A stretch of DNA of 64,000 nucleotides, taken from assembly GCF_024502345.1 (NCBI RefSeq), contig NZ_JALDNN010000001.1. One strand, given 5' to 3'. The notes below the pieces were generated by a model that saw nothing but the letters and a program-made list of their open reading frames with translations, had not been told where the DNA came from and ran no database searches. The translations under genes were made by a program, and so were the position numbers. The DNA comes from Escherichia coli. Its GTDB lineage: Bacteria; Pseudomonadota; Gammaproteobacteria; Enterobacterales; Enterobacteriaceae. This document shows, piece after piece, positions 27,140 through 64,000 of this stretch (position 1 is its first letter; every line of letters starts with the position of its first letter).

Positions 27140-27180
27140 TCAGTGTATTGGTAGCTAAAAAGCCAGGGGCGGTAGCGTGT
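27140..27180 (+). promoter_or_regulatory. JUMPstart element with ops site (GGCGGTAGCGTG at 27168..27179) in the wza leader
   Basis: ggtagctaaaaagccaggggcggtagcgtg matches the JUMPstart/ops (RfaH recruitment) consensus; lies about 180 bp upstream of wza. Confidence 0.85.
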
Positions 27181-46094: not shown

Positions 46095-46440
46095 TTGTTT
46101 TCGGTTTCGGCAATGGTTGCCGGATGCGGCGTAAAACGCCTTATCCATCCTACGGTTCTGTGCTCGGGACCTGTAGGCCTGATAAGACGCGTCAGCGTCG
46201 CATCAGGCACTGAATGCCGGATGCGGCGTGAACGCCTTATCCGGCCTACGGTTCTGTGCTCGGGTCTTGTAGGCCTGATAAGACGCGCCAGCGTCGCATC
46301 AGGCACTGAATGCCGGATGCGGCGTGAACGCCTTATCCATCCTACGGTTCTGTGCTTGGATCTTGTAGGCCTGATAAGACGCGCCAGCGTCGCATCAGGC
46401 AAAAAACGGCAACGAACACAACAAACACAGCCTCACCTGG
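46095..46440. repeat. REP array (BIME cluster) between wzxC and wcaK
   Basis: Six alternating units of gccggatgcggcgtgaacgccttatcc...cctacg and gtaggcctgataagacgcg(c/t)cagcgtcgcatcaggc. Confidence 0.85.
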
Positions 46441-47742: not shown

Positions 47743-48959
47743 AGGTCGGCTTCTTTTTACTGAAATTTCCGTTGTCGTCAGAAACCTTCGTCCTCAATCA
47801 AATTACCGCGTTTATTGATATGGGATTTGAGGTGGAGATTGTTGCGCTGCAAAAAGGCGACACCCAGAACACCCACGCGGCATGGACGAAATACAACCTT
47901 GCCGCCAGAACCCGTTGGTTACAGAACGAACCTGCGGGCAAAGTAGCGAAACTGCGCCACCGCGCCAGCCAGACGTTACGTGGCATTCATCGTAAAAATA
48001 CCTGGCAGGCGCTCAACCTCAAACGCTATGGTGCCGAGTCGCGGAACCTGATTTTGTCTGCCATTTGTGGTCAGGTCGCAACACCGTTTCATGCCGATGT
48101 CTTTATCGCTCATTTTGGCCCTGCGGGGGTAACCGCAGCAAAACTACGCGAACTGGGTGTCATTCGCGGCAAAATTGCCACTATCTTTCACGGTATTGAT
48201 ATCTCCAGTCGGGAAGTGCTCAACCACTACACTCCCGAATATCAACAACTGTTTCGCCGTGGCGACCTGATGTTACCAATAAGCAATCTGTGGGCCGGAA
48301 GGCTGCAAAAAATGGGCTGCCCGAGGGAAAAAATTGCCGTATCGCGCATGGGCGTGGACATGACGCGTTTTAGCCCGCGTCCGGTGAAAGCGCCCGCAAC
48401 GCCGCTAGAAATCATTTCCGTCGCACGCTTAACCGAGAAAAAAGGCCTGCATGTGGCGATTGAAGCCTGCCGTCAGTTGAAAGAGCAGGGCGTGGCATTT
48501 CGCTATCGCATCCTCGGCATTGGCCCGTGGGAACGACGCCTGCGCACGCTCATCGAACAATATCAACTGGAAGATGTGGTGGAGATGCCTGGCTTTAAAC
48601 CGAGCCATGAAGTGAAAGCGATGCTCGACGACGCGGATGTCTTCCTGTTGCCATCGGTTACAGGTGCGGATGGTGATATGGAAGGCATTCCGGTGGCGCT
48701 AATGGAAGCGATGGCGGTCGGCATTCCGGTGGTTTCTACTCTGCATAGCGGAATACCGGAACTGGTGGAGGCTGACAAATCCGGCTGGCTGGTGCCTGAG
48801 AACGATGCTCGCGCACTGGCGCAACGCCTGGCGGCATTTAGCCAACTGGACACCAACGAACTGGCTCCGGTTATCAAACGTGCTCGCGAAAAAGTCGAAC
48901 ACGATTTTAACCAGCAGGTGATTAATCGAGAACTCGCCAGCTTGTTGCAGGCTTTATAG
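47739..48959 (+). CDS. wcaL: Colanic acid glycosyltransferase WcaL (GT4)
   Basis: 406-aa ORF, 4-bp overlap with wcaK. Confidence 0.93.
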
Positions 48960-48969
48960 AGGAGAACGT

Positions 48970-50364
48970 ATGCCATTTAAAAAACTCTCCCGACGCACCT
49001 TCCTGACGGCAAGCTCGGCCCTTGCCTTCCTCCATACCCCTTTCGCTCGCGCACTTCCCGCCCGACAAAGCGTTAACATTAACGACTACAACCCTCACGA
49101 CTGGATCGCCTCATTTAAACAAGCCTTCAGCGAAGGGCAAACGGTCGTCGTGCCTGCCGGATTGGTTTGCGACAATATCAACACCGGCATCTTCATTCCT
49201 GCAGGTAAAACGTTACACATCCTTGGAAGCCTGCGCGGCAACGGCAGAGGGCGATTTATCTTACAGGACGGCAGCCAGGTGACAGGGGAGGAGGGCGGCA
49301 GTATGCATAACATCACCCTGGATGTGCGAGGCTCTGACTGCACCATCAAAGGGCTGGCGATGAGCGGCTTTGGCCCGGTAACGCAGATTTATATCGGCGG
49401 CAAAAACAAACGGGTCATGCGTAACCTGACCATCGATAACCTCACTGTCAGCCACGCTAATTACGCCATCTTACGCCAGGGATTTCATAACCAGATTATC
49501 GGTGCCAACATCACCAACTGTAAGTTCAGCGACTTACAGGGGGACGCTATTGAATGGAACGTGGCGATTAACGACAGTGATATTTTGATCTCCGACCATG
49601 TTATCGAGCGCATCAACTGTACCAACGGCAAAATCAACTGGGGCATCGGCATAGGTCTTGCGGGAAGTACCTACGATAACAACTACCCGGAAGACCAGGC
49701 AGTGAAAAACTTTGTCGTGGCGAATATCACGGGATCGGATTGTCGGCAGTTGATCCATGTTGAAAATGGTAAACATTTTGTTATTCGTAATATCAAAGCC
49801 CGCAATATCACGCCGGATTTCAGTAAGAAAGCAGGTATTGATAACGCCACAGTCGCTATTTACGGTTGTGACAATTTCGTGATTGATAATATTGAAATGA
49901 TTAATAGCGCCGGGATGTTAATCGGCTATGGGGTAATTAAAGGCAAATATCTCTCGATACCGCAAAATTTCCGAGTGAATAATATTCAACTGGATAACAC
50001 CCATCTTGCTTATAAATTGCGCGGCATTCAAATCTCCGCCGGGAATGCTGTCTCCTTTGTGGCGCTGACTAACATTGAGATGAAGCGTGCCTCGCTTGAG
50101 CTACACAATAAACCGCAACATCTTTTTATGCGAAATATCAAGGTGATGCAGGAATCCTCAGTTGGACCCGCATTGAGCATGAACTTTGACATGCGCAAAG
50201 ACGTTCGCGGCGTCTTTATGGCGAAAAAAGAAACACTGCTATCTCTTGCAAATGTTCATGCGGTGAATGAAAGAGGACAAAGCTCCGTCGATATCGACAG
50301 GATTAATCACCATATTGTTAATGTGGAAAAGATTAACTTTAGATTGCCAGAACGGAGGGAGTAG
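48970..50364 (+). CDS. wcaM: Colanic acid biosynthesis protein WcaM
   Basis: 464-aa ORF with Tat-like signal ([15 protein letters not shown]). Confidence 0.93.
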
Positions 50365-50521
50365 ATTTGCGACCATTCATAAACTTACTGGATATAATGT
50401 TCTAAAAGATTATAATCCTCACACTAACTGTTAAAGCTGGGGCTGGGCAGCATTGACTACTCAGGGAAGGTACTCATCTTTATCTTGTGTTTCTTACGTA
50501 ACAACCAGACTAAAGTGATTT

Positions 50522-51517
50522 ATGAACGATAACGTTTTGCTCATAGGAGCTTCCGGATTCGTAGGAACCCGACTACTTGAAACGGCAATTGCTGACTTTA
50601 ATATCAAGAACCTGGACAAACAGCAGAGCCACTTTTATCCAGAAATCACACAGATTGGTGATGTTCGTGATCAACAGGCACTCGACCAGGCGTTAGCCGG
50701 TTTTGACACTGTTGTACTACTGGCAGCGGAACACCGCGATGACGTCAGCCCTACTTCTCTCTATTATGATGTCAACGTTCAGGGTACCCGCAATGTGCTG
50801 GCGGCCATGGAAAAAAATGGCGTTAAAAATATCATCTTTACCAGTTCCGTTGCTGTTTATGGTTTGAACAAACACAACCCTGACGAAAACCATCCACACG
50901 ATCCTTTCAACCACTACGGCAAAAGTAAGTGGCAGGCAGAGGAAGTGCTGCGTGAATGGTATAACAAAGCACCAACAGAACGTTCATTAACCATCATCCG
51001 TCCTACCGTTATCTTCGGTGAACGGAACCGCGGTAACGTCTATAACTTGCTGAAACAGATCGCTGGCGGCAAGTTTATGATGGTGGGCGCAGGGACTAAC
51101 TATAAGTCCATGGCTTATGTTGGAAACATTGTTGAGTTTATCAAGTACAAACTGAAGAATGTTGCCGCAGGTTATGAGGTTTATAACTACGTTGATAAGC
51201 CAGACCTGAACATGAACCAGTTGGTTGCTGAAGTTGAACAAAGCCTGAACAAAAAGATCCCTTCTATGCACTTGCCTTACCCACTAGGAATGCTGGGTGG
51301 ATATTGCTTTGATATCCTGAGCAAAATTACGGGCAAAAAATACGCTGTCAGCTCTGTGCGCGTGAAAAAATTTTGCGCAACAACACAGTTTGACGCAACG
51401 AAAGTGCATTCTTCAGGTTTTGTGGCACCGTATACGCTGTCGCAAGGTCTGGATCGAACTCTGCAGTATGAATTCGTCCATGCCAAAAAAGACGACATAA
51501 CGTTTGTTTCTGAGTAA
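50522..51517 (+). CDS. gnu: NAD-dependent epimerase of the Z3206 (Gnu/Gne) type; GlcNAc-P-P-Und 4-epimerase candidate
   Basis: 331-aa ORF with Rossmann motif LLIGASGFVGTRLL, between wcaM and galF where K-12 has no gene, as I recall. Confidence 0.7.
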   Translation: MNDNVLLIGASGFVGTRLLETAIADFNIKNLDKQQSHFYPEITQIGDVRDQQALDQALAGFDTVVLLAAEHRDDVSPTSLYYDVNVQGTRNVLAAMEKNGVKNIIFTSSVAVYGLNKHNPDENHPHDPFNHYGKSKWQAEEVLREWYNKAPTERSLTIIRPTVIFGERNRGNVYNLLKQIAGGKFMMVGAGTNYKSMAYVGNIVEFIKYKLKNVAAGYEVYNYVDKPDLNMNQLVAEVEQSLNKKIPSMHLPYPLGMLGGYCFDILSKITGKKYAVSSVRVKKFCATTQFDATKVHSSGFVAPYTLSQGLDRTLQYEFVHAKKDDITFVSE

Positions 51518-51759
51518 TGCAGACGAGTCAGAGAAAAAAGGACCAGGTTGGACTACGATTATTCGGAAAGAGGTACTGATTAAATTATCAGTATGTGGAA
51601 TTCCGAGTAATCCGAGTAACCCAGATGCTGATGGTGTGTAGTGTTATCGTAAGGTTTAATCAAAGTTATGCGGAACTAAGCTTTGGTATATAGCCATACC
51701 GTTTGGCTAACCTATGGCAATAATTTACGCACTATCAGCCACTTAGAGGTAGGAAAATA

Positions 51760-52653
51760 ATGACGAATTTAAAAGCAGTTATACCGGTAGCGGGTCTTGG
51801 GATGCATATGTTGCCTGCCACTAAGGCGATACCCAAAGAGATGCTACCGATCGTCGACAAGCCAATGATTCAGTACATTGTTGACGAGATTGTGGCTGCA
51901 GGGATCAAAGAAATCCTCCTGGTAACTCACGCGTCCAAGAACGCAGTCGAAAACCACTTCGACACCTCCTATGAATTAGAATCTCTCCTTGAACAGCGCG
52001 TGAAGCGTCAACTACTGGCGGAAGTGCAATCTATCTGTCCACCGGGAGTGACCATTATGAACGTGCGTCAGGGCGAACCTTTAGGTTTAGGCCACTCCAT
52101 TTTGTGTGCGCGACCTGCCATTGGTGACAACCCATTTGTCGTGGTACTGCCAGACGTAGTGATCGACGACGCCAGCGCCGACCCGCTGCGTTACAACCTT
52201 GCCGCTATGATTGCGCGCTTCAATGAAACGGGACGCAGCCAGGTGCTGGCAAAACGTATGCCGGGTGATCTCTCTGAATACTCCGTCATTCAGACCAAAG
52301 AACTGCTGGATCGCGAAGGTAAAGTCAGCCGCATTGTTGAATTCATCGAAAAACCGGATCAGCCACAAACGCTGGACTCAGACATCATGGCCGTTGGTCG
52401 CTATGTGCTTTCTGCCGATATTTGGCCGGAACTTGAACGCACTCAACCTGGTGCATGGGGGCGTATTCAGCTAACTGATGCCATTGCCGAACTGGCAAGA
52501 AAACAGTCCGTTGATGCAATGCTGATGACTGGTGACAGCTACGACTGCGGTAAAAAAATGGGGTATATGCAGGCGTTTGTGAAGTATGGACTACGCAACC
52601 TGAAAGAAGGGGCGAAGTTCCGTAAAGGTATTGACAAGCTGTTAAGCGAATAA
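51760..52653 (+). CDS. galF: UTP-glucose-1-phosphate uridylyltransferase-like regulatory subunit GalF
   Basis: 297-aa [46 protein letters not shown]. Confidence 0.96.
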
Positions 52654-52886
52654 TGAAAATCTGACCGAATGTAACGGTTGATAAGACAAATTATAACGGC
52701 AGTGAAGATTCCTGTGGGGAGTAATTTGTTGCGATTACCACTGTCGTTATTCAACTATAAGCATAAAAAAGTTAAATATAATTTGGGGATTTTAAGTATA
52801 TGGAAACGCCTTTGTCTACTGAATAAGTAAAGTATTAACTGTAAGAAAAGCGTGAATGGTGTTCCCTACATAATTTAAAGATATTC

Positions 52887-52925
52887 AGTCTACTGGTAGC
52901 TGTTAAGCCAGGGGCGGTAGCGTGG
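52887..52925 (+). promoter_or_regulatory. JUMPstart element with ops site (GGCGGTAGCGTG at 52913..52924) upstream of the O-antigen cluster
   Basis: cagtctactggtagctgttaagccaggggcggtagcgtg matches the 39-bp JUMPstart consensus closely. Confidence 0.9.
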
Positions 52926-52956
52926 ATAATTTTGAAAAAAAAGATTAGAGCATAAA

Positions 52957-54348
52957 ATGAATTTACTTAAAGGGACAATAATATATACATTGTCAAATTT
53001 GACAATTAAATTTGGTGCAGTTTTACTGCTTCCTATATTAACTCATTTACTTAATCCAGAAGAGTATGGGATGGTAGGATTGTATGTTACACTTACTTCC
53101 TTTCTTACAATAATTTTAGGGCTTGGTTTTTATACACCCTTAATGAAAACTCAGTCGGAGCAGAAAAGCAATATTGCAACTTCAAACCATGTAAATTTTT
53201 GTGCGATAATATTTCTTATCGCAGTTTATTTATTATTGCTTTTATTTCTTTACTTTATATTGAAGTCGTCTTTAGTTATTGATTTGTTGGGGGAGGTGAA
53301 ACTAGATAGCAAATTAATTTATTTGGCAGTTATTGTATCAATGTTTTCTGCAATTAATATTATTATGAACACGTCGTTTAGAATGGACGAGAATTATATA
53401 TTAGTTGCAATATTGTCAATTTTATCTTTTGTGTTATTTTATTCCTCTGCTATAATATTCATTAAACTGTTCAATTATGGAGGCCTTGGCTATATATATG
53501 GCAATTTATTAAGTTCAATAATCATTTTTTTTATAAGTTTCACTTGTTACTATAGAAAATTATCTATTGCATTTTCATGGCACAACGTGAAATTTTTGTG
53601 TAGGAATGGAATTCCAATGGTTTTTGTAGAGTTATCTGATAAAATAATTGAAGCCAGCGATAGATTTATTTTAGTCAGATATATTTCACTATCCTCTTTA
53701 GGCGTATATACACTAGCACTAACGGGATGTAAAGTATTAAACGTAGTTTTCAATTCTTATATTAGCGCTATCCTTCCCTCTATCTATAAAAGCGTTGAAA
53801 GCCGTGAAGATTCAAATTATATAAAAGTGAAGCTTGAGAATGCATACGTGCTTGTAGTGATGATGGTTTTTTTGGGACAGTTGATATCAAAAGAAATAAT
53901 TGACATAATTTTTCCTGCATCATATTCAAATTTATTTTTTGTATTTATATTAGCTTTGCCTGCAATATCTCTTCAATATTATTATTTCTTAGATTTCTAT
54001 TTTCATAGAAGTGAAGATAGCCGATTTATTTTATGTTTTACAATAGCAACCTCGATAATAAATATTATTCTAAACTTAATTTTTGTTCCCAAATATGGAG
54101 TTTATGCATCTCTTTTATCAACGTATATATCCTATTTAATCAGAACGCTAGTAGAAATAAAATTTATAGCGAGACGGTATAAATTGAAGTTTAGTGTGCT
54201 TAACGTCCTTATGGGAAGCTTTGTTCTGTATACTGTTCCTTTATTATATCATTATGGTTATTATACAGTGTTGTTGAGAGTAACTTTGTCAATTGTTTTA
54301 TTTATAGGTATTATTATGTTTTATAAAAAAAGTAGAATATTCAATTAA
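52957..54348 (+). CDS. wzx: O-antigen flippase Wzx
   Basis: 463-aa multi-TM ORF of the polysaccharide-transporter family; first gene after JUMPstart; low GC. Confidence 0.8.
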   Translation: MNLLKGTIIYTLSNLTIKFGAVLLLPILTHLLNPEEYGMVGLYVTLTSFLTIILGLGFYTPLMKTQSEQKSNIATSNHVNFCAIIFLIAVYLLLLLFLYFILKSSLVIDLLGEVKLDSKLIYLAVIVSMFSAINIIMNTSFRMDENYILVAILSILSFVLFYSSAIIFIKLFNYGGLGYIYGNLLSSIIIFFISFTCYYRKLSIAFSWHNVKFLCRNGIPMVFVELSDKIIEASDRFILVRYISLSSLGVYTLALTGCKVLNVVFNSYISAILPSIYKSVESREDSNYIKVKLENAYVLVVMMVFLGQLISKEIIDIIFPASYSNLFFVFILALPAISLQYYYFLDFYFHRSEDSRFILCFTIATSIINIILNLIFVPKYGVYASLLSTYISYLIRTLVEIKFIARRYKLKFSVLNVLMGSFVLYTVPLLYHYGYYTVLLRVTLSIVLFIGIIMFYKKSRIFN

Positions 54349-54361
54349 AAGTGAGTGCTAA

Positions 54362-55546
54362 GTGATCATGGTTAATGCTAAAAATTTTGTATTAATTATT
54401 TTTGATGTAATATGTCTTTTTTTTAATGTTTTTATTTATGTCCCACGTCTAATTATTGGTGTTTTAACAGTAGATAAAACATTGATTATTACATTTCCCT
54501 TGATGTTATCAGTGTTGGCATATAATTTTATTCCACCAGAAACATATGATCTTTACAGACATTATGAAAACTATCAAAATTTTTTGAATAATAATGAAGT
54601 AAGTTTTATCAGGGATTTTTTTCTTTATTTTTTATTTACCGTAGGGAGGTTTTTTGATTTAAATAATGGATTTATAGCATTTGTATCTTGTTATATCCTC
54701 TATTTTTATTGGTTAAAAATATTATACATTAACTTTGATTATAAAGCCAAGAAGAAAAATTTCCCGTTATACTTTCTTATATTTTTTATTACTCCACCTC
54801 TTGTTATATATACAGGCGTTCGATTTTCCACAGGGCTTATATTAACACTGTATGGGATTGTAAACTGGATTCAATTACGGAATGTAAAACTTGGTATAGT
54901 ATATATTATTTGCGGGTTAACAGCCCATTTTTCAATGGCATTGATTGCTTTAATATTTATTTTCACATCATATTTCAATAATATCTTTTCAAATAAATAT
55001 TTAAGGGTTGGGTTCGTATTTTCTGCATTACTTGTAATCTCATTTAATGAACAGTTAGTAAGGTTTTTGACAACAGTAATTGAGTTCATTAATCAGTTAT
55101 TTGATTGGAACTTTATTAGTATCGATACATATATTACTGGTAAATGGGGGCTGGAGAGGGCGCAGGAATTGAATTCAACCGGACAATTAGTATTAGGTAT
55201 ACGTAATTATGGTATGCTCTTTCTAATATTGCTATTTTGCCCACTAATATCTTTTAATAAAAATAAATATACGAACTTTTATTATGTAATGTGTGCTGTT
55301 ACAATATTAGTTTTCCCTTTTACAGCAGTATTTGATAGATATGGAACATTTTTAATTTTTTTTATTGTATACTATCTTAGTACTCTTCAGAAAAAAACTA
55401 ACATTGAAATAATATATTTTTTAACGTTGATTGTATATTTGATTTTCTTTAGAGCAATAGACATCAAAGATAATATTTCCGTATACACTGAAAGCTATAG
55501 TAATATATTGAATCTTTCTTTAATTAAAGTACTGTTAGGAATATAA
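54362..55546 (+). CDS. wzy: O-antigen polymerase Wzy (putative)
   Basis: 394-aa highly hydrophobic multi-TM ORF next to wzx; start may be ATG at 54368. Confidence 0.65.
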   Translation: MIMVNAKNFVLIIFDVICLFFNVFIYVPRLIIGVLTVDKTLIITFPLMLSVLAYNFIPPETYDLYRHYENYQNFLNNNEVSFIRDFFLYFLFTVGRFFDLNNGFIAFVSCYILYFYWLKILYINFDYKAKKKNFPLYFLIFFITPPLVIYTGVRFSTGLILTLYGIVNWIQLRNVKLGIVYIICGLTAHFSMALIALIFIFTSYFNNIFSNKYLRVGFVFSALLVISFNEQLVRFLTTVIEFINQLFDWNFISIDTYITGKWGLERAQELNSTGQLVLGIRNYGMLFLILLFCPLISFNKNKYTNFYYVMCAVTILVFPFTAVFDRYGTFLIFFIVYYLSTLQKKTNIEIIYFLTLIVYLIFFRAIDIKDNISVYTESYSNILNLSLIKVLLGI

Positions 55547-56526
55547 TGCGTAAATATGAAAATAATATTGTTATAAGTGTGATTATTCCAACATATAACA
55601 ATGATAAAACAATCATAGAGGCTATTCAATCTATAGTAAATGTTGAGATGCCTGTGAAATATGAGGTGCTAGTAATAGACGATGGTTCGGTAGATCAGAC
55701 ATCAAATTTAATTGCAGAATATATAAGTCAAAGAAAAGATAATACTATTAAATATTTTTATCAAAAAAACAGTGGTGTAAGCGCTGCGAGAAACGTGGGA
55801 ATAAAAAATGCATTAGGGAAATATGTTCTATTTTTAGACGCAGATGATACATATAGTGAACATGTGTTAAAAGAAATAGATGAAATATTAAGTACTAACA
55901 ATGATATATATGTGTTTTCATATGAAAAACTGAATAATAAAAAGGCTATAATATCAAATAAAAAAAATATTATAACTCATTATAATAGTAAATATGATTT
56001 TTTAAACTCCTATATCTCAGGTGAACTTTTCGGGTGCGTTAGTGTTTGCTCTTGCATTTTTAGTAAAGAATCATTAATTAGCAATAATATTTTTTACGAT
56101 AGTAAAATTGCTTATGGGGAAGATCAATGGTTTTTGATAAATGCTCTCAAGGTTTGCAATGATGTAGAGTTCAGATTAGAACTAAATTTACTGAATTATA
56201 CTTATAATACGGAGTCGGCGACTAATCGTTTCAACCTAAGACGTTTTGACGCGATTACAATGCTAGAAAGAATCAATCAAGAAGCATTTAAGGTTAATCA
56301 AGATATAATTAATGCAAGAATTAATAAAGAATTGGTAAATATAGCAACAATATATACGAAATTCAATTCGTTACAGAAATCAATAATGTTTGTTAATAAC
56401 GTTATACTCCCAAAAATAAAAACGGATAGTGACAAAAGACTATATATGTTCAAAGATATGGTTTTCACTAGATTACCATATTTATATATAATACTTTATA
56501 AACTCTATATTAAGCTATTTAAGTAA
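55546..56526 (+). CDS. Glycosyltransferase family 2
   Basis: 326-aa ORF, ISVIIPTYNN...DDGSVD...LDADD (GT-A, DXD). Confidence 0.8.
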   Translation: MRKYENNIVISVIIPTYNNDKTIIEAIQSIVNVEMPVKYEVLVIDDGSVDQTSNLIAEYISQRKDNTIKYFYQKNSGVSAARNVGIKNALGKYVLFLDADDTYSEHVLKEIDEILSTNNDIYVFSYEKLNNKKAIISNKKNIITHYNSKYDFLNSYISGELFGCVSVCSCIFSKESLISNNIFYDSKIAYGEDQWFLINALKVCNDVEFRLELNLLNYTYNTESATNRFNLRRFDAITMLERINQEAFKVNQDIINARINKELVNIATIYTKFNSLQKSIMFVNNVILPKIKTDSDKRLYMFKDMVFTRLPYLYIILYKLYIKLFK

Positions 56527-56532
56527 ACTAAT

Positions 56533-57714
56533 ATGAATATTCTTATAATTATTCCTAAGTTATGTAACGGTGGGATTGAAAAAATTGCATCAAACTTTTC
56601 TCAATACTTACCAGAAAGATATAATCAATTTGTATATTCAATCATGTCACAAGACTCTTCTTATGATTTTGCGGTAAAGCCCATTATATTAAATAAAAGT
56701 TTAGGTAAAACCTTTATTGGAAAATTGATTACATTTTTCTACAGGCTTCATTTGGCACGTAAAATTATTAGAGAAAATAACATAGATATATGCATTAGTT
56801 TTGGGGAGAGATGTAATATTATAAATATTCTATCTATGGGGAAAACAAAAAAAATCATTACTATACATAGTCAGCTATCTATTGAAAATAAAACAAAAGG
56901 ATTATATGGGAAAGTTACAACACTATTTTCAAAATTGCTTTATAAAAATGCGGATGCTACTGTAGCCGTATCAGAAATAGTGAAGAAGGATGCGTGCGGT
57001 TTATTAAATTTAGATGCGAATAATGTAGAGCTAATTTATAATGGACACGATATTGATTATATCAAAGATAAGTCTACTGATTATAAAGAATTTGATACAC
57101 CTGTGATCGACTTCGTGTCTGTAGGGCGAATTACATATGCTAAAGGGCATTATCATCTATTGAGAAGTCTTGCCATAGTAAAGGAGACGTATCCTAATGT
57201 AATACTATATATTGTTGGCACGTATGAAAAAGATAATTTAAAAAGCATAATTGATCATTTAATTGAGAAATACGATTTATATGATAATGTGATTTTTACC
57301 GGCTTTAGTGACAATCCATATCCTTACATAAAATCAGCAAAGGCTCTTATACTTAGTTCAATTTTTGAAGGTTTTCCAGGCGTTGTTATCGAGAGTATTG
57401 CGCTTGGAACTCCTGTCATAGCGACAGATTGTGGCGGTGCTTCAGAAGTTTTAAAAAGTCCAGATGCCAAAATAAAGAATAATACGGGAGATGTGGAAAT
57501 TACTAAATTAGGAGTACTGTTACCAAAATTCGATGGGATTTATGATATTAATTTGGATTTTTCGCCCACAGAAAAAAAGATGGCGCAAGTTATGAATGAT
57601 ATTATATCAGGGAAGCTGAAATTTAATGAAGACTTTTTAATTACAAAAGCAAACGAATATGATATAGATTCTATGATGAAAAAATATACGGACTTAATAG
57701 AGAAAATAAAATAA
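56533..57714 (+). CDS. Glycosyltransferase family 4 (GT-B)
   Basis: 393-aa ORF with C-terminal EGFPGVVIESIALGTPVIATDCGG motif. Confidence 0.8.
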   Translation: MNILIIIPKLCNGGIEKIASNFSQYLPERYNQFVYSIMSQDSSYDFAVKPIILNKSLGKTFIGKLITFFYRLHLARKIIRENNIDICISFGERCNIINILSMGKTKKIITIHSQLSIENKTKGLYGKVTTLFSKLLYKNADATVAVSEIVKKDACGLLNLDANNVELIYNGHDIDYIKDKSTDYKEFDTPVIDFVSVGRITYAKGHYHLLRSLAIVKETYPNVILYIVGTYEKDNLKSIIDHLIEKYDLYDNVIFTGFSDNPYPYIKSAKALILSSIFEGFPGVVIESIALGTPVIATDCGGASEVLKSPDAKIKNNTGDVEITKLGVLLPKFDGIYDINLDFSPTEKKMAQVMNDIISGKLKFNEDFLITKANEYDIDSMMKKYTDLIEKIK

Positions 57715-58685
57715 TGAAAGAAGCTACTACCTCATATAAATCAATTCATACTATATTAGATTATTTTGGTTGGTCTCATGAAGATTATTGGCATATCAAC
57801 TATAAAGTAAATTATGATTTTTCAAAATTTAATTATTATTGGGATTTGACAAAAAAGTATAATTGGTTTAGTGGACCTTTTGATCAAAATAATATTCCTT
57901 TATATCTTGGCACTGATTCAAAACTGCATTACTCGCCAATTTTTTTAGGGCATTATGCTCTTGGAGCATATCAAGAATATCTATTATCAAATGATAAAAA
58001 AGCATATGACGATTTTATAAGAATAGCGGATTGGTTTGTTGAAAATACAACGACATATAAAAAATGTTCTGGAATATGGATAAATACATACCCAATGTCA
58101 ACTTTTAACTTAAAAGGTAAATGGCAATCGTGTTTAGCCCAGGCAAAAGGTATATCTGTCCTATGTAGAGCTTATTATCTTACGCAAAATTTAAAATATT
58201 TGAAGGTAGCTCTTGACGCATTTGAATCTTTCAAAATATATAAAGAAGAAGGTGGAGTTAAGGTAAGGCATAAAAACGTATTCTTTTGGGAGGAATATCC
58301 AACTATAACCAATTCTATCGTATTGAATGGACATATTTTTGCAGTTTGGGCATTGTACGATTTATCTTTTGTATTAAAAGATAAGAACGAATTTAAGCAA
58401 CAATGGACGGATATTTACAGTTATTATAAAAAATCACTGATTATATTAAAAGAGAATTATAAGTTATGGGATACGCGCTATTGGACTAGATATGATATAT
58501 GGGATAAACATTTTAATGTTTCAAGTTTGTTTTATCATAATCTCCATATTAAACAATTCTATATATTGGCTGTTTTGGGAGATGATGATGATTTCAAGAA
58601 AATTGCTAATAAATGGGCTGGTAAATTAAAAAATCCGCTTTTCAGAATGTATGCGCTTATAAAGAAAGTAGTTTTTAGGTTATGA
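57714..58685 (+). CDS. D-glucuronyl C5-epimerase-like protein (C-terminal domain family), putative hexuronate epimerase
   Basis: 323-aa soluble ORF; AQAKGISVLCRAYYLT and FWEEYPTITNSIVLNGHIFAVWALYDL resemble, from memory, conserved blocks of the glucuronyl C5-epimerase C-terminal domain. Confidence 0.5.
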   Translation: MKEATTSYKSIHTILDYFGWSHEDYWHINYKVNYDFSKFNYYWDLTKKYNWFSGPFDQNNIPLYLGTDSKLHYSPIFLGHYALGAYQEYLLSNDKKAYDDFIRIADWFVENTTTYKKCSGIWINTYPMSTFNLKGKWQSCLAQAKGISVLCRAYYLTQNLKYLKVALDAFESFKIYKEEGGVKVRHKNVFFWEEYPTITNSIVLNGHIFAVWALYDLSFVLKDKNEFKQQWTDIYSYYKKSLIILKENYKLWDTRYWTRYDIWDKHFNVSSLFYHNLHIKQFYILAVLGDDDDFKKIANKWAGKLKNPLFRMYALIKKVVFRL

Positions 58686-59563
58686 TTATGAATGTTATTG
58701 ATAAAATTATTATGGGTTTGAAAAGTATATATTTAAGCTTTCTTTATACAATATATAATTTATTTCTTAATGAAAATAGATTCGAAGAGACAAATGAAGT
58801 ACATGTTGTTGTAAGTTTGACGTGTTTTCCTGGACGTATAAAAAAAGTATATCTTACTTTGGAGTCAATTATGGCTCAACAATATAATAACTTTAAAGTG
58901 GTATTGTACTTGTCTCATGAAGAGTTTCCAAAGGGTTTAGAGGATTTACCTCGTAGTTTAATACGATTACATAAAAGAGGTGTCGATATTAATTTTACGT
59001 GTGAAAATATTCGATCTTATAAGAAGTTACATTATGCGCTGAGTGATTTCCCGGAACTACCTGTAATAACAGCTGATGATGATGTCTTATATCCCTCGCG
59101 ATGGGTAAATGATTTTATGGAGTCACATAAGCTTTTTCATGATGATATATTATTTGCGAGGGGGCATCAGATAACATTTGACCGAAATGGAAATGTTAAA
59201 AAATATATCTCTTTCGGAAAACCAGCTGGATATTCAGCATCAAGTTTATATATTCCTACAGGAGTAAGTGGAATTCTATATCCGCCAGGATGTTTTTTTC
59301 AAGATGTGCAGAATAAAGATATTTTTATGAAGTTGGCACCTAACGCAGATGATATATGGTATAAAGTAATGACTTTGTTAAACGGTCGAAAATCCAGATT
59401 GATCTATAAAAAGCCAATTCATTATCCACCTATCCTTGGCACACAGAAGATCTCCTTGCGTAAACAAAACTTATCGAAACAACATTTAAATAATGATACA
59501 CAATTATTAAATTTAATTGATTATTATTCTATCGAATTAGCTGATTTTAAGAAAAAGGAATAG
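58682..59563 (+). CDS. Putative glycosyltransferase, family unassigned
   Basis: 293-aa ORF with N-terminal hydrophobic segment and DXD-like ITADDDV motif; 4-bp overlap with the upstream gene. Confidence 0.45.
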   Translation: MIMNVIDKIIMGLKSIYLSFLYTIYNLFLNENRFEETNEVHVVVSLTCFPGRIKKVYLTLESIMAQQYNNFKVVLYLSHEEFPKGLEDLPRSLIRLHKRGVDINFTCENIRSYKKLHYALSDFPELPVITADDDVLYPSRWVNDFMESHKLFHDDILFARGHQITFDRNGNVKKYISFGKPAGYSASSLYIPTGVSGILYPPGCFFQDVQNKDIFMKLAPNADDIWYKVMTLLNGRKSRLIYKKPIHYPPILGTQKISLRKQNLSKQHLNNDTQLLNLIDYYSIELADFKKKE

Positions 59564-59568
59564 CTCCT

Positions 59569-60309
59569 ATGGAATTAGTTTCAATTATAATGCCTTGTTT
59601 TAATAATGAAGCAACTATAAAAGAAAGTATTAACAGCGTACTATCTCAAAGTTATAAATGCTGGGAGTTAATTATTATCAATGACAACTCAACAGATGAT
59701 TCACAAAATATTATTAACGACTATGTGAATAGTGATGAAAGAATAAAACTGATTACTAATGAAAAAAATATCGGAGCTGGAGGTAGTAGAAATAAAGGAA
59801 TTGAAATTGCAAATGGAAGATTCATTGCTTTTTTAGATGCAGATGATGTTTGGTTGCCAGAAAAACTTGCAAAACAAATAAAGTTTATGAGAGATGGTAA
59901 TTATGCACTGACATATAGTTATTATCAAAAGTTTGATTCAACTGGATTGGGAGCGATCGTCCGGTCACCTGCTACAACAACCTATAGGAAATTGTTATAC
60001 AGTAATGTTATTGGATGTCTAACAGGAATGTATGATACTGATTTTTTGGGTAAATGCTATATGCCTTTAATTCGTAAACGACAAGATATGGGGCTTTGGT
60101 TGTCAATATTGAAAAAGTGTAATAAAGCATATTGCTTACCTGAAGTTTTGGCATATTATAGAATTGACTCAGGAATGACAAAAAATAAACTTGATGCGGC
60201 AAAATATCAGTGGCGATTTTATAGGGACGTAACTAAACTTAATTTGATTCAATCAAGTTGGTATTTTGTTTGGTATTCAGTTTTAGGTTTGGTAAAGTAC
60301 AAAAAATAA
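59569..60309 (+). CDS. Glycosyltransferase family 2
   Basis: 246-aa ORF, VSIIMPCFNN...NDNSTDDS...LDADD. Confidence 0.8.
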   Translation: MELVSIIMPCFNNEATIKESINSVLSQSYKCWELIIINDNSTDDSQNIINDYVNSDERIKLITNEKNIGAGGSRNKGIEIANGRFIAFLDADDVWLPEKLAKQIKFMRDGNYALTYSYYQKFDSTGLGAIVRSPATTTYRKLLYSNVIGCLTGMYDTDFLGKCYMPLIRKRQDMGLWLSILKKCNKAYCLPEVLAYYRIDSGMTKNKLDAAKYQWRFYRDVTKLNLIQSSWYFVWYSVLGLVKYKK

Positions 60310-60318
60310 TAAGGAGGA

Positions 60319-61332
60319 GTGATGACAATTTTAGTCACTGGTGGTGCTGGATATATTGGCAGTCACACTGTTATTGAATTACAGAAAAATGGTTTTGACG
60401 TGGTAATAGTAGATAATTTTTGTAATTCATCGCCATCGGTTTTAAAAAGAATTGAATTAATTACAGGGAAGGAAATTAAATGTTACGATATTGATCTTCT
60501 GGATTTTAATTCTTTGCAGAAGGTTTTTGTAACTAATAATATTAACTCTGTGATTCATTTTGCATCTTTAAAATCAGTTTCTGAATCACTAATCAAACCA
60601 ACTGAATATTATCATAATAATTTGAGTGGTTGCCTCAATGTCTTGAAAATAATGAAAGAACATAACGTGAATAATTTCATTTTCAGTTCTTCGGCAACTG
60701 TATATGGCAGTAATAACAACAATCCTGTTTCAGAATCTTCATCAGTCGGCACCGCAACAAATCCTTATGGAAAATCCAAGATTTTTTTAGAGCAAATATT
60801 GTCTGATTGCTGTAAATCAAATCCTAATTTAAATGTAACTTGCCTGAGGTATTTCAATCCGGTTGGTGCACATTCTTCAGGTTTGATAGGAGAATCTCCG
60901 AATGGTGTTCCTGCCAATTTAGTTCCATATTTAACTCAGGTTGCTTTAGGTAAATTGCCCGTATTACATATATATGGTAATGACTATGATACCAAGGATG
61001 GGACGGGAGTAAGAGATTTTATTCATGTTACGGATTTAGCTAATGGACACATAGCTGCGCTGAAAAAAATAAATGGTCATAATGGTTTTAAAGTTTATAA
61101 TCTTGGTACTGGGCGAGGTTATAGTGTGTTAGAAGTCGTTAGATGTTTTGAGGCTATTACAGGAAAAAGTATTCCAATCGAATTTTCGCCTCGCAGAGAA
61201 GGTGATATCGCTGAAAGTTGGGCAAATGTTTCCGCAGCAAATTATGAGTTAGAGTGGTTCGCTAAAAAGACATTAACTGATATGTTACGAGATGCATGGA
61301 AATGGCAAACGTTAAATCCAAATGGATTATAA
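60319..61332 (+). CDS. UDP-hexose 4-epimerase, GalE family (UDP-Glc/UDP-GlcNAc 4-epimerase)
   Basis: 337-aa ORF, MTILVTGGAGYIGSHTVIELQKNGFDVVIVDNFCNS, closely GalE-like; last gene of the O-antigen cluster. Confidence 0.85.
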   Translation: MMTILVTGGAGYIGSHTVIELQKNGFDVVIVDNFCNSSPSVLKRIELITGKEIKCYDIDLLDFNSLQKVFVTNNINSVIHFASLKSVSESLIKPTEYYHNNLSGCLNVLKIMKEHNVNNFIFSSSATVYGSNNNNPVSESSSVGTATNPYGKSKIFLEQILSDCCKSNPNLNVTCLRYFNPVGAHSSGLIGESPNGVPANLVPYLTQVALGKLPVLHIYGNDYDTKDGTGVRDFIHVTDLANGHIAALKKINGHNGFKVYNLGTGRGYSVLEVVRCFEAITGKSIPIEFSPRREGDIAESWANVSAANYELEWFAKKTLTDMLRDAWKWQTLNPNGL

Positions 61333-61417
61333 AGATATTTAATTTATATTAAACCTTGCTTATTTAAGATAATGTAAACCGCACCTTTGCGGTAACCCCC
61401 CCTGACAGGAGTAAACA

Positions 61418-62824
61418 ATGTCAAAGCAACAGATCGGCGTCGTCGGTATGGCAGTGATGGGGCGCAACCTTGCGCTCAACATCGAAAGCCGTGGTTATAC
61501 CGTCTCTATTTTCAACCGTTCCCGTGAAAAGACGGAAGAAGTGATTGCCGAAAATCCAGGCAAGAAACTGGTTCCTTACTATACGGTGAAAGAGTTTGTT
61601 GAATCTCTGGAAACGCCTCGTCGCATCCTGTTAATGGTGAAAGCAGGTGCAGGCACGGATGCTGCTATTGATTCTCTCAAGCCATACCTCGATAAAGGCG
61701 ACATCATCATTGATGGTGGTAACACCTTCTTCCAGGACACCATCCGTCGTAACCGTGAGCTTTCTGCAGAAGGCTTTAACTTCATTGGTACCGGTGTCTC
61801 CGGTGGTGAAGAAGGCGCGCTGAAAGGTCCTTCCATTATGCCTGGTGGGCAGAAAGAAGCCTATGAACTGGTTGCGCCGATCCTGACAAAAATCGCCGCA
61901 GTGGCTGAAGACAGCGAACCGTGCGTTACCTATATTGGTGCCGATGGCGCAGGTCACTATGTGAAGATGGTTCACAACGGTATTGAGTACGGCGATATGC
62001 AGCTGATTGCTGAAGCCTATTCTCTGCTTAAAGGTGGTCTGAACCTCACCAACGAAGAACTGGCGCAGACCTTTACCGAGTGGAATAACGGTGAACTGAG
62101 CAGCTACCTGATCGACATTACCAAAGACATCTTCACTAAAAAAGATGAAGACGGTAACTACTTGGTTGATGTGATCCTGGATGAAGCGGCAAACAAAGGT
62201 ACGGGCAAATGGACCAGCCAGAGCGCACTGGATCTCGGCGAACCGCTGTCGCTGATTACCGAGTCTGTGTTTGCACGATACATCTCTTCTCTGAAAGATC
62301 AGCGCGTTGCTGCGTCTAAAGTTCTCTCTGGCCCACAAGCGCAGCTAGCTGGCGACAAGGCTGAGTTCATCGAAAAAGTTCGCCGTGCACTGTATCTGGG
62401 CAAAATCGTTTCTTACGCTCAGGGGTTCTCTCAACTGCGTGCGGCGTCTGAAGAGTACAACTGGGATCTGAACTACGGCGAAATCGCGAAGATTTTCCGT
62501 GCTGGCTGCATCATCCGTGCGCAGTTCCTGCAGAAAATCACCGATGCTTATGCCGAAAATCCGCAAATCGCTAATCTGCTGCTGGCTCCGTACTTCAAGC
62601 AAATTGCCGATGACTACCAGCAGGCGCTGCGTGATGTCGTTGCTTATGCAGTACAGAACGGTATCCCTGTTCCTACCTTCGCTGCTGCGGTTGCCTATTA
62701 CGACAGCTACCGCGCCGCTGTTCTGCCTGCGAACCTGATCCAGGCACAGCGTGACTATTTCGGTGCGCATACTTATAAGCGCATTGATAAAGAAGGTGTG
62801 TTCCATACCGAATGGCTGGATTAA
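61418..62824 (+). CDS. gnd: 6-phosphogluconate dehydrogenase (decarboxylating)
   Basis: 468-aa [33 protein letters not shown]. Confidence 0.97.
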
Positions 62825-62852
62825 TCTGATTTAAATCAATTAATCAATGCAA

Positions 62853-62883
62853 GGCCCGGAGAAACCCTCCGGGCTTTTTTATT
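62853..62883 (+). terminator. Rho-independent terminator downstream of gnd
   Basis: ggcccggagaaaccctccgggc hairpin followed by ttttttatt. Confidence 0.8.
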
Positions 62884-63072
62884 ATACAAAGCGGCATGTT
62901 ATGGCCTTTTTTTATAATTTATAGTTAAAAACGCGATATAATACAGCGCCGCACAGCAGGATCGCTGCCTTGACAGTTCATCTACATCAGCGTTAAAAAT
63001 CCCGCAGTAGATGAAGTTGTGGTGGTGGATTAATGACCACTCTAAATGTTTAACCGGAAGAAGTCAGAGCTA

Positions 63073-64000
63073 ATGAAAATAACAATTTCAGGAACAGGTT
63101 ATGTTGGTCTTTCAAATGGTATTCTGATTGCGCAAAATCACGAAGTGGTTGCACTGGATATCGTTCAGGCCAAAGTGGACATGCTTAACAAGAAGCAGTC
63201 ACCGATTGTTGATAAGGAGATTGAAGAGTATCTGGCGACTAAAGATCTCAATTTCCGCGCTACGACAGATAAGTATGACGCGTATAAAAATGCCGATTAC
63301 GTTATTATTGCCACGCCTACCGATTATGACCCGAAAACAAATTATTTTAATACCTCAAGCGTGGAAGCGGTCATTCGCGATGTGACAGAAATTAATCCCA
63401 ACGCGGTAATGGTGATTAAATCTACAATTCCGGTAGGTTTCACCAAATCAATTAAAGAACGTCTGGGTATCGATAATCTTATTTTCTCTCCGGAATTTCT
63501 CCGTGAAGGTAAAGCCCTTTACGATAATCTCCATCCTTCACGTATTGTCATTGGTGAGCGTTCAGAACGCGCAGAACGTTTTGCTGCGTTGTTACAGGAA
63601 GGCGCGATTAAGCAAAATATCCCGACCCTGTTTACCGACTCCACTGAAGCAGAAGCGATTAAACTTTTCGCTAATACCTATCTGGCGATGCGCGTAGCAT
63701 ACTTTAATGAACTGGATAGCTATGCAGAAAGTTTAGGTCTGAATACTCGCCAGATTATCGAAGGCGTTTGTCTCGATCCGCGTATTGGCAACCATTACAA
63801 CAATCCGTCGTTTGGATATGGTGGTTATTGTCTGCCGAAAGATACCAAGCAGTTACTGGCGAACTACCAGTCTGTGCCGAATAACCTGATTTCGGCAATT
63901 GTCGATGCTAACCGCACACGTAAAGACTTTATTGCCGATGCCATTTTGTCACGCAAACCGCAAGTGGTGGGTATTTATCGTCTGATTATGAAGAGCGGTT
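63073..64000 (+). CDS. ugd: UDP-glucose 6-dehydrogenase, 5' part (continues beyond window)
   Basis: ATG at 63073; translation [59 protein letters not shown]...; not in the ORF track because no stop lies within the window. Confidence 0.93.

Follow-up and report, generated by a model that had tools for sequence, protein, structure and literature searches.

Within the window, by which we mean the whole 64,000-nucleotide stretch of DNA that was analysed, the interval between galF (51760..52653, + strand, GC 0.504) and gnd (61418..62824, + strand, GC 0.507) is filled by exactly eight + strand open reading frames (ORFs), with intergenic gaps of -4 to +13 nt. These conserved left and right flanks were identified from the RefSeq annotation of the near-identical locus of strain Res13. 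A preliminary description of this DNA had proposed an AT-rich cassette of eight genes between galF and gnd, and both the gene count and the base composition agree with it: GC is 0.294 at 52700-61332 (from the galF-wzx spacer to the stop codon of galE) as against 0.532 at 1-49500, and the GC profile, which was run as a check, is uneven, with no 8.6-kb segment of 1-49500 below 0.503. The individual cluster genes have a GC of 0.26-0.34 and a GC3 of 0.22-0.25, with galF and gnd at about 0.50/0.53. No rml, man or fucose genes are found among the eight ORFs, again as first described.

A 39-nt JUMPstart element (52886..52924, + strand), read directly as CAGTCTACTGGTAGCTGTTAAGCCAGGGGCGGTAGCGTG, contains the ops octamer GGCGGTAG (52913-52920, + strand), and this JUMPstart/ops leader stands 37 nt ahead of wzx. 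The JUMPstart consensus and the role of RfaH are well established, and the element is predicted to be the RfaH-dependent antitermination signal of the operon. The first two genes confirm a Wzx/Wzy-dependent O-antigen cluster unlike that of K-12. The O-unit flippase gene wzx (52957..54348, + strand; Pfam Polysacc_synt PF01943, E 1.8e-23) encodes a protein with about 11 hydrophobic segments, and the O-antigen polymerase gene wzy (54368..55546, + strand; Pfam EpsG PF14897, E 1.3e-7) one with at least 8; the longest wzy ORF begins at GTG 54362, while 54368 is the RefSeq start. Both are of the O112ab type, and on identical DNA RefSeq names them “O112ab family O-antigen flippase” and “O112ab family O-antigen polymerase.”

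The next two genes encode a large inverting GT2-family glycosyltransferase of 326 aa (55546..56526, + strand; RefSeq “glycosyltransferase family 2 protein”), whose NCBIfam GT2 matches all fall under the equivalog cut-off, and a retaining GT4-family glycosyltransferase of 393 aa (56533..57714, + strand), which most resembles the alpha-1,4-GalNAc-transferase PglJ (NCBIfam NF050063, E 1.4e-34; 119.9 bits, short of the 500-bit cut-off). Further downstream lies a small inverting GT2-family transferase of 246 aa (59569..60309, + strand) that resembles TuaG (NF047683, E 1.1e-79; 267.7 bits, short of the 400-bit cut-off) and is a candidate beta-GlcA transferase. The last gene (60322..61332, + strand; longest ORF from GTG 60319) encodes a UDP-hexose 4-epimerase of the GalE/Gne clade, scoring 427.6 bits against TIGR01179 GalE (cut-off 262.3). 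Its gatekeeper position, aligned to C307 of human GALE, is Ser300, and ACD37092.1 “EcO112ab” is entered under “selected gne/galE” in Table S1 of PMC3682973; the enzyme probably supplies UDP-GalNAc as well.

Between the GT4 gene and the small GT2 gene lie the two genes that give this cluster its particular character. The first (57714..58685, + strand) encodes a GlcE-type D-glucuronyl C5-epimerase of 323 aa (Pfam C5-epim_C PF06662, E 1.8e-35), in which no hydrophobic, membrane or signal segment was found. Only the catalytic alpha-helical domain is present, both the N-terminal beta-hairpin and the beta-sandwich domains of animal GlcE being absent, and the protein matches the GlcE structures in the PDB from zebrafish (E 2.5e-23) and human (E 2.1e-22). 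The enzyme is predicted from its family to convert D-glucuronic acid (GlcA) to L-iduronic acid (IdoA), a sugar of heparin. All five GlcE catalytic residues are conserved, E194, Y195, N205, Y260 and Y274 corresponding to E499, Y500, N510, Y560 and Y578 of human GlcE (PMC13308652). A 2019 review names this epimerase “Gae.”

The second of these genes (58688..59563, + strand) carries only the name “hypothetical protein” in RefSeq. An alternative ATG at 58682 overlaps the stop codon of the epimerase gene. As a single query the protein matched no Pfam or NCBIfam family, while a profile built from 46 of its homologues matched the C-terminal domain of PmHS2 (E 2.7e-9) and KfiA (5z8b, E 2.3e-8), with which it shares the motifs SYPxR and DDDxxYPxD(Y/W); D132-D133-D134 is invariant. 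Among these 46 homologues, 13 matched PF00535 and 1-3 matched GT64. A search of the PDB by Foldseek with an AF2 model (pLDDT 95.1) likewise returned KfiA first (E 3.1e-8), at an identity to KfiA of only about 14-16%. By profile, motifs and fold, then, the “hypothetical” protein is a KfiA/heparosan-synthase-like glycosyltransferase (GT45-like, with a GT-A fold and a DDD motif), and its recognition next to the C5-epimerase is what is new here. It brings the transferases of the cluster to four, alongside the large GT2, the GT4 and the TuaG-like GT2; since the O112ab repeat is a branched pentasaccharide (as given in the literature), which requires WecA and four transferases, the KfiA-like protein completes the count as the fourth. 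The preliminary description had allowed for “four or five” glycosyltransferases, which is now narrowed to four, and its wzx, wzy, C5-epimerase-like gene and GalE-family epimerase all stand.

Two genes outside 52700-61332, whose contributions were overlooked in that description, also bear on the O-antigen. Upstream of galF lies gnu (50522..51517, + strand; gene GC 0.451), encoding an SDR epimerase whose NCBIfam matches are all sub-threshold; in the near-identical Res13 DNA it is annotated as WP_000999466.1, [quoted passage not shown] (a GlcNAc-PP-undecaprenol 4-epimerase), and its position agrees with the galF-linked gnu locus (PMC3682973; PMC7685785). A second, milder GC trough (0.43-0.45, at 49.5-51.7 kb) lies over this gene, and functionally it belongs to the O-antigen system. 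Downstream of gnd is ugd (63073..64000, + strand), for UDP-glucose 6-dehydrogenase, a 309-codon open frame that is cut by the window end and is annotated in the near-identical loci; it would supply UDP-GlcA, the precursor of IdoA.

The 8,764-bp galF-gnd interval is matched at 100% nucleotide identity by seven complete genomes of E. coli with the annotation O112ab, among them Res13-Lact-EA06-22, which was deposited as E. coli O112ab:H8; NCTC9112 is 99.2% identical. The region is almost certainly, as judged from these matches, the E. coli O112ab O-antigen gene cluster, common to Shigella boydii type 15. This cluster has already been described (Perepelov et al., 2008; Liu et al., 2008, 2019); gene order and the galF-gnd chromosomal site agree, and no difference is detectable. 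We add annotation and the accessory roles of gnu, ugd and the JUMPstart element outside the cluster. The preliminary description had held the serogroup to be unnameable from sequence, and this part of it falls to the reference comparison. A new or unidentified serogroup was also considered and has virtually no chance of being correct, ruled out by the 100% nucleotide match, across the entire 8.76 kb, with clusters annotated as O112ab, that of the O112ab:H8 strain among them.

Both O112ab and S. boydii B15 carry the same single IdoA-containing pentasaccharide, and the 323-aa C5-epimerase homologue of E. coli O112ab is listed in the same source (PMC3068255). One may ask, then, whether the window comes from S. 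boydii type 15 itself, as the literature gives the two organisms identical O-antigens and the 323-aa epimerase, Shigella genomes were outside the searched collection, and no complete E. coli genome matches the initial 25 kb of the window at more than 98.3% identity. We consider such a source very unlikely, given that the window matches E. coli S43 at 100% identity over 25001-46000 and differs by 4 mismatches from E. coli 442/2 over 46.0-64.0 kb and by 1 from Res13 over 46654-64000. Its colanic acid genes, moreover, are intact, and these are often not intact in Shigella. Slightly less probable still is a decayed (rough) remnant, which is suggested by three genomes with a deletion of about 6.8 kb, which starts shortly ahead of wzx and ends within the small GT2 gene, and by the S43 record, where the cluster is scrambled and contains partial genes; the eight ORFs of the window are all full length and identical in seven other genomes, including the O112ab:H8 strain. 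Horizontal exchange, which had been proposed, is borne out. The cluster is rare, at least 80% of the interval being present in only 10 of 5,426 genomes, and in comparison with 442/2 the near-identity around it extends over at least 18 kb, with a breakpoint near 46 kb.

The GT4, C5-epimerase and KfiA-like genes are adjacent in all five of the other loci examined (in Providencia rettgeri, Vibrio parahaemolyticus, Photobacterium kishitanii, Aeromonas and one metagenome contig), with the GT4 gene always directly upstream of the epimerase gene, and the latter either overlapping the KfiA-like gene by 1-4 nt or lying 2 nt from it. A small GT2 gene follows in all four loci with a long enough contig (Providencia, Vibrio, Photobacterium and Aeromonas); in Providencia, Photobacterium and Aeromonas, an embedded ugd also lies next to the epimerase and KfiA-like genes. 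No epimerase gene adjoins the more distant KfiA-like homologues, at about 35% identity, of Clostridium, V. astriarenae and Xaviernesmea, so the pairing is a feature of the subfamily and could stem from shared ancestry of one cassette. What the analysis establishes is the identity of the cluster, the conservation of this gene order and, for each protein, its family and its catalytic residues.

We have high confidence in the overall reading of an O112ab Wzx/Wzy operon with the following pathway. Transcribed from the JUMPstart/ops (RfaH) leader, the operon would serve an O unit begun by WecA (encoded elsewhere) as GlcNAc-PP-Und, which Gnu would convert to GalNAc-PP-Und, the first sugar. Four cytoplasmic transferases (the large GT2, the PglJ-like GT4, the KfiA-like enzyme and the TuaG-like GT2) would finish the pentasaccharide, drawing on UDP-Gal and UDP-GalNAc via the in-cluster GalE/Gne and on UDP-GlcA via the adjacent Ugd. 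The cytoplasmic C5-epimerase would convert a D-glucuronic acid residue to L-iduronic acid, and the unit would be flipped by Wzx and polymerised by Wzy to a chain length set by WzzB, which is encoded downstream of the window. What the C5-epimerase signifies had escaped the preliminary description: among E. coli O-antigens, IdoA is confined to O112ab (PMC7685785).

We see roughly an even chance that the epimerase acts, together with the adjacent KfiA-like alpha-HexNAc transferase, on the Und-PP-linked oligosaccharide, by analogy with heparan sulfate, and not on UDP-GlcA. The same cluster could instead make UDP-L-IdoA from UDP-D-GlcA by “Gae,” as the 2019 review proposed (by its own account not from experimental data); a transferase would then add IdoA directly, and the KfiA-like neighbour would be incidental. 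In favour of this route, the epimerase is a small soluble protein of the cytoplasm, the compartment that offers UDP-GlcA, and it lacks the extra domains that aid animal GlcE in binding long polymers. We think this the less probable route: the target GlcA must bear flanking sugars for eukaryal GlcE and DSepi1, for the bacterial counterparts of these and for archaeal Agl32 (PMC13308652), and the conserved pairing, with translational coupling, of the epimerase and a heparosan-type alpha-HexNAc transferase in the five other loci is what a glycan-level partnership predicts. In Halobacterium salinarum, Agl32 forms IdoA inside a short carrier-linked oligosaccharide (PMC13308652), which sets a functional precedent for epimerisation at the glycan level in a setting other than glycosaminoglycans (GAGs), although its active site differs and lacks the GlcE catalytic residues, whereas the E. 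coli enzyme is a true GlcE type.

The resemblance to the heparosan/heparan sulfate machinery extends from the epimerase, which corresponds to the C-terminal catalytic domain of GlcE and keeps all five of its catalytic residues, to the transferase, which is homologous in profile, motifs and fold to KfiA (E. coli K5) and the GlcNAc-T domain of PmHS2 (Pasteurella multocida), and to UDP-GlcA as the precursor in both systems. If the KfiA analogy holds, it predicts an alpha-HexNAc at O-4 of IdoA. The O112ab system differs in following a Wzx/Wzy O-unit pathway on Und-PP in place of a processive capsule or Golgi polymerase, in having no sulfotransferases, and in yielding a branched pentasaccharide repeat rather than a GAG disaccharide polymer.

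Full synteny (wzx, wzy, GT2, GT4, C5-epimerase, KfiA-like GT, GT2, epimerase) is found in the Providencia rettgeri locus (GCA_034304035.1, contig DASHJB010000006.1), which is likewise low in GC (0.349). Unlike O112ab, it has ugd inserted between the KfiA-like and GT2 genes, and its flanking genes are not galF and gnd but wzi and wza-wzb-wzc, as is typical of a capsule-type export setting. Its proteins are 37-61% identical to those of O112ab, too divergent for this locus to be the direct donor of the O112ab cluster.

On sequence identity, the genes lying between galF (51760-52653) and gnd (61418-62824) are the known O-antigen cluster of O112ab and Shigella boydii 15; the cluster is real and not new. 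The preliminary description had considered that the serogroup could not be named from sequence, and this proved wrong, since a Megablast search of 5,426 complete E. coli genomes found seven with 100% identity over all 8,764 bp of 52654-61417, whose wzx and wzy carry the names "O112ab family O-antigen flippase" and "O112ab family O-antigen polymerase" and one of which was deposited as E. coli O112ab:H8. The comparison of wzx and wzy with reference alleles that it had proposed gives the same answer: both are 100% identical to alleles annotated O112ab, and gene content and order from galF to gnd are those of the O112ab genomes (one ungapped 8,764-bp alignment with identical annotation tables). 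The cluster is rare, as at least 80% of 52654-61417 is present in only 10 of the 5,426 genomes. Strain NCTC9112 (L014, NZ_LR134079.1) carries an O112ab allele with 99.2% identity across this interval, flanks at 97.3-98.0% and other protein accessions for wzx, wzy, the glycosyltransferases and the epimerase, so there are at least two lineages of the O112ab cluster. O112ab and O112ac are distinct antigens with distinct clusters, and L-iduronic acid (L-IdoA) occurs among E. coli O-antigens in O112ab only (PMC7685785); O112ab and S. boydii B15 have one L-IdoA-containing pentasaccharide in common, each of them encoding a C5-epimerase homologue of 323 aa (PMC3068255).

The anatomy of the cluster had been correctly described beforehand. 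An AT-rich block does stand at 52700-61332, with a GC content of 0.294 vs. 0.532 over 1-49500, where no 8.6-kb window falls below 0.503, and the GC profile that had been suggested as a check, once run, was anything but even: it shows a sharp trough of 0.23-0.33 at about 52.7-61.3 kb, with about 0.53 upstream and about 0.50 in gnd. Eight plus-strand ORFs occupy the space between galF and gnd, with operon-like junctions of -4 to +13 nt, per-ORF GC contents of 0.26-0.34 and GC3 values of 0.22-0.25. As had been noted, none of the eight is an rml, man or fucose gene by RefSeq name or NCBIfam match, and the ABC transporter genes wzm and wzt are absent, all eight ORFs falling in other families. A further, shallower GC dip (0.40-0.42) at 62750-63750 takes in the spacer between gnd and ugd as well as the 5' portion of ugd.

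The cluster opens with a 39-nt JUMPstart element at 52886-52924, whose ops octamer (GGCGGTAG, 52913-52920) is 37 nt before the wzx ATG. The wzx gene (52957-54348) encodes a Polysacc_synt/MOP-type flippase (PF01943, E 1.8e-23; PF13440, E 2.5e-20), and wzy (54368-55546) encodes a multi-spanning protein with at least eight hydrophobic segments and an EpsG match (PF14897, E 1.3e-7). The gene for the chain-length regulator, wzzB, is 3' of ugd in near-identical loci and would here lie past the end of the window. Downstream of wzy come a GT2 glycosyltransferase (326 aa) and a GT4 (393 aa) whose best NCBIfam similarity, below threshold, is to the alpha-1,4-GalNAc-transferase PglJ; a TuaG-like GT2 (246 aa, 59569-60309) is found toward the end, just after the KfiA-like gene treated below. 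Five further ops octamers occur in the window (8295 and 15683 on the minus strand; 26581, 27168 and 39841 on the plus strand), making six vs. 1.36 expected from shuffling; that at 27168 precedes wza, with which the colanic acid cluster begins, by about 190 nt, at coordinates that match those in E. coli S43.

The last cluster gene encodes a GalE-clade epimerase (TIGR01179, 427.6 bits, over the GalE equivalog cut-off) with Ser300 at the gatekeeper position, aligned with C307 of the bifunctional human GALE. A small residue at this position (Y299 in E. coli GalE, C307 in the human enzyme) permits N-acetylated substrates. Because Ser300 replaces the Y299-type gatekeeper, the protein is probably Gne-like and a candidate UDP-GlcNAc 4-epimerase. 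Upstream of galF and outside the noted interval is a putative gnu (50522-51517, GC 0.451), a gene expected to encode a clade-D SDR epimerase at a galF-linked locus; its product gives only sub-threshold NCBIfam SDR matches, and both the galF-linked position and the RefSeq name (GlcNAc-PP-Und 4-epimerase), the latter taken from near-identical DNA of the O112ab:H8 strain (one mismatch over 46654-64000), agree with gnu. Its presence would imply GalNAc as the first sugar; gnu may be present where it is not needed (PMC3682973). UDP-GlcA would be supplied by ugd, which starts at 63073 and runs past the window end; ugd is part of the block that O112ab strains share in near-identical form.

The C5-epimerase (323 aa, 57714-58685) belongs to C5-epim_C (PF06662, E 1.8e-35) and matches the zebrafish and human GlcE structures (PDB 4pw2 and 6hzz) with E values of about 1e-22 to 1e-23. 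Its residues 101-307 align to 373-579 of zebrafish GlcE, and E194, Y195, N205, Y260 and Y274 align with E499, Y500, N510, Y560 and Y578 of human GlcE, which are the catalytic residues of that enzyme (PMC13308652). Whereas animal GlcE has an N-terminal dimerisation beta-hairpin and a beta-sandwich domain, both are absent from the 323-aa protein, which by alignment is a short, domain-minimal bacterial GlcE-type form consisting of the C-terminal helical domain only. It contains no hydrophobic segment and is thus presumably cytoplasmic. GlcA to IdoA conversion is its candidate activity, and IdoA is reported in the literature for the O112ab polysaccharide.

Immediately 3' of the epimerase is a gene (58688-59563, or from 58682; 291 or 293 aa) whose product RefSeq names a "hypothetical protein" and which, searched alone as the 293-aa protein, has no match in Pfam or NCBIfam. 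A database search returned 122 homologues, and a profile built from 46 of them (A1) matched the C-terminal domain of Pasteurella heparosan synthase 2 (PmHS2; PDB 8vh7, E 2.7e-9) and KfiA of E. coli K5 (5z8b, E 2.3e-8), while the single sequence vs. PDB without the profile reached an E value of only 0.011. SYPxR and DDDxxYPxD(Y/W) motifs are common to the profile, KfiA and PmHS2, with D132-D133-D134 invariant and aligned with the DDD of both enzymes; 13 of the 46 profile members match PF00535, and one to three match the heparan GT64 domain. In the AlphaFold (AF2) model (pLDDT 95.1), the best Foldseek match in PDB was KfiA (E 3.1e-8, TM 0.63 normalised to KfiA), and PmHS2 chains came next, amid generic GT-A folds. 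Taken together, the profile matches, shared motifs and best structural match indicate that the "hypothetical" protein is a GT-A, KfiA/heparosan-synthase-like (CAZy GT45-like) transferase, a placement owed to the homologue profile and the structure model and not to a single-sequence family search. This homology and the coupling of its gene to those of the epimerase and Ugd suggest that it would transfer HexNAc to a uronic acid in alpha-1,4 linkage by a retaining mechanism.

With this protein recognized, the cluster has exactly four transferases, so that of the "four or five" counted earlier it is four that holds. WecA initiates the O unit, and four is the number required thereafter for the published pentasaccharide.

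The pairing of the two genes is conserved elsewhere. In five further loci, examined on contigs encoding homologues of the KfiA-like transferase or the epimerase (Providencia rettgeri, Vibrio parahaemolyticus, Photobacterium kishitanii, Aeromonas and one metagenome contig), the order GT4, C5-epimerase, KfiA-like transferase was found in all five, with the latter two genes overlapping by 1-4 nt or lying 2 nt apart. A small GT2 follows in all four loci whose contig reaches far enough (the metagenome contig stops after the KfiA-like gene), and ugd is often embedded. The P. rettgeri cluster is syntenic with that of E. coli throughout, at 37-61% amino acid identity and a GC content of 0.349. Eight of 18 epimerase homologues are on contigs equal in size to those bearing KfiA-like homologues, a proxy for the same contig. 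Adjacency to an epimerase as a trait of the whole KfiA-like family was ruled out by homologues of about 35% identity (Clostridium, V. astriarenae, Xaviernesmea), which have no epimerase neighbor; the pairing thus characterizes a subfamily, and we limit it to KfiA-like proteins of at least about 44% identity. In Clostridium sp. Marseille-P299 (locus L008, 5054-6909), the distant KfiA-like homologue has a weak GT64 Pfam match and adjoins a DUF6625 protein, which might be its functional partner in that lineage; a UDP-glucose dehydrogenase gene lies about 4 kb downstream.

By homology and established pathway knowledge, WecA and Gnu would start the O unit, four cytoplasmic transferases would extend it, Wzx would flip it and Wzy polymerise it, with RfaH-dependent transcription. 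The remaining step is the level at which L-IdoA is formed. We favor, at roughly an even chance, epimerisation of GlcA to L-IdoA on the undecaprenyl diphosphate (Und-PP)-linked oligosaccharide, because the epimerase is of the true GlcE type, because each of the five other loci couples its gene to one for an alpha-HexNAc transferase of the heparosan type, and because sugars flanking the target GlcA are reportedly required by the known eukaryal and bacterial C5-epimerases as well as by archaeal Agl32 (PMC13308652). The other route, conversion of UDP-GlcA to UDP-L-IdoA at the nucleotide-sugar level, was proposed by a 2019 review, but the review itself states that the proposal is not based on experiment, and we regard it as rather unlikely. 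The anomeric outcome cannot tell the two apart. With epimerisation on the lipid-linked glycan, O112ab would be predicted to contain an alpha-HexNAc-(1->4)-IdoA motif, with alpha-HexNAc on O-4 of IdoA. More broadly, and with a little less than even confidence, we propose that the epimerase and the KfiA-like transferase, together with the GT4 and the small GT2 on either side, make up a conserved "heparin-like" cassette of gamma-proteobacterial O-antigen and capsule loci, which would build HexNAc-alpha-(1->4)-uronic acid on undecaprenyl diphosphate and epimerise GlcA to L-IdoA while lipid-linked. If true, this would be the first case of a bacterial GlcE homologue being shown to work on a short glycan bound to a carrier and a compact two-enzyme route to IdoA-containing oligosaccharides, and it would contradict the UDP-L-IdoA route of the literature.

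For the source strain, the locus itself adds only the O112ab serogroup call. The analysis adds two modest points, namely that the "hypothetical" gene can be re-annotated as KfiA-like and that the epimerase and transferase genes form a conserved cassette. A literature search for KfiA, C5-epimerase and O-antigen, of incomplete coverage and thus weak evidence of novelty, returned no paper linking them. O112ab and S. boydii 15 have the only iduronic-acid O-antigen in E. coli/Shigella, and the KfiA-like identity together with the epimerase coupling (five other loci, from four genera and one metagenome) allows a direct test of the level at which bacteria form IdoA, with possible relevance to the enzymatic synthesis of heparin-like oligosaccharides.

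Horizontal exchange, as previously suggested, is borne out by the GC contrast, the rarity of the cluster and a block breakpoint seen against the O112ab strain E. coli 442/2. The window differs from 442/2 by four mismatches over about 46.0-64.0 kb vs. about 2% divergence to the left, so that the O112ab locus appears to pass from one E. coli background to another in a block that spans at least 18 kb and takes in gnu, galF, gnd and ugd. The switch from divergence to near-identity coincides with three tandem 96-nt REP/BIME-like repeats in the wzxC-wcaK spacer (46109-46422; later copies 95% and 78% identical to the first), which are thus likely the recombination junction for O-locus exchange.

The remaining backbone is mosaic relative to the closest sequenced relative, since 25-46 kb matches E. 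coli S43 at 100% identity and 1-13.6 kb is divergent (97.4% over 1-11.7 kb; 93.8% over 11.4-13.6 kb, the Ibs/Sib type I toxin repeat area). The best identity for 1-25000 (mdt-yegI-dgcE-asmA) among the 5,426 complete E. coli genomes is 98.3%, which could point to a non-E. coli or cryptic-clade source; we reject this as the main reading given the S43 identity, which, within a comparison set of E. coli genomes, supports an E. coli rather than a Shigella host.

The window does not represent S43 itself, given the divergence over 1-13.6 kb and a rearranged O cluster in that strain. The S43 record (L016, NZ_CP010237.1, 3304-9502) carries a scrambled O112ab cluster within flanks equal to those of the window: the wzy segment (window 54498-55461) has moved 3' of the epimerase, and the annotation lists wzx, wzy and the epimerase as partial pseudogenes, due either to mis-assembly of AT-rich DNA or to a real rearrangement. 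Three complete genomes (B19374, 162.2 and OY757949) have, of the whole cluster, only galE and a truncated small GT2 left between the flanking genes galF and gnd; the deletion of about 6.8 kb (window about 52945-59728) takes wzx, wzy, two glycosyltransferases, the epimerase and the KfiA-like gene, with the junction TTTTGAAAAAAAAGA|ATAGTGATG at 10270-10320 of the B19374 locus (L002, NZ_CP142915.1), and these strains are presumably rough derivatives of O112ab.
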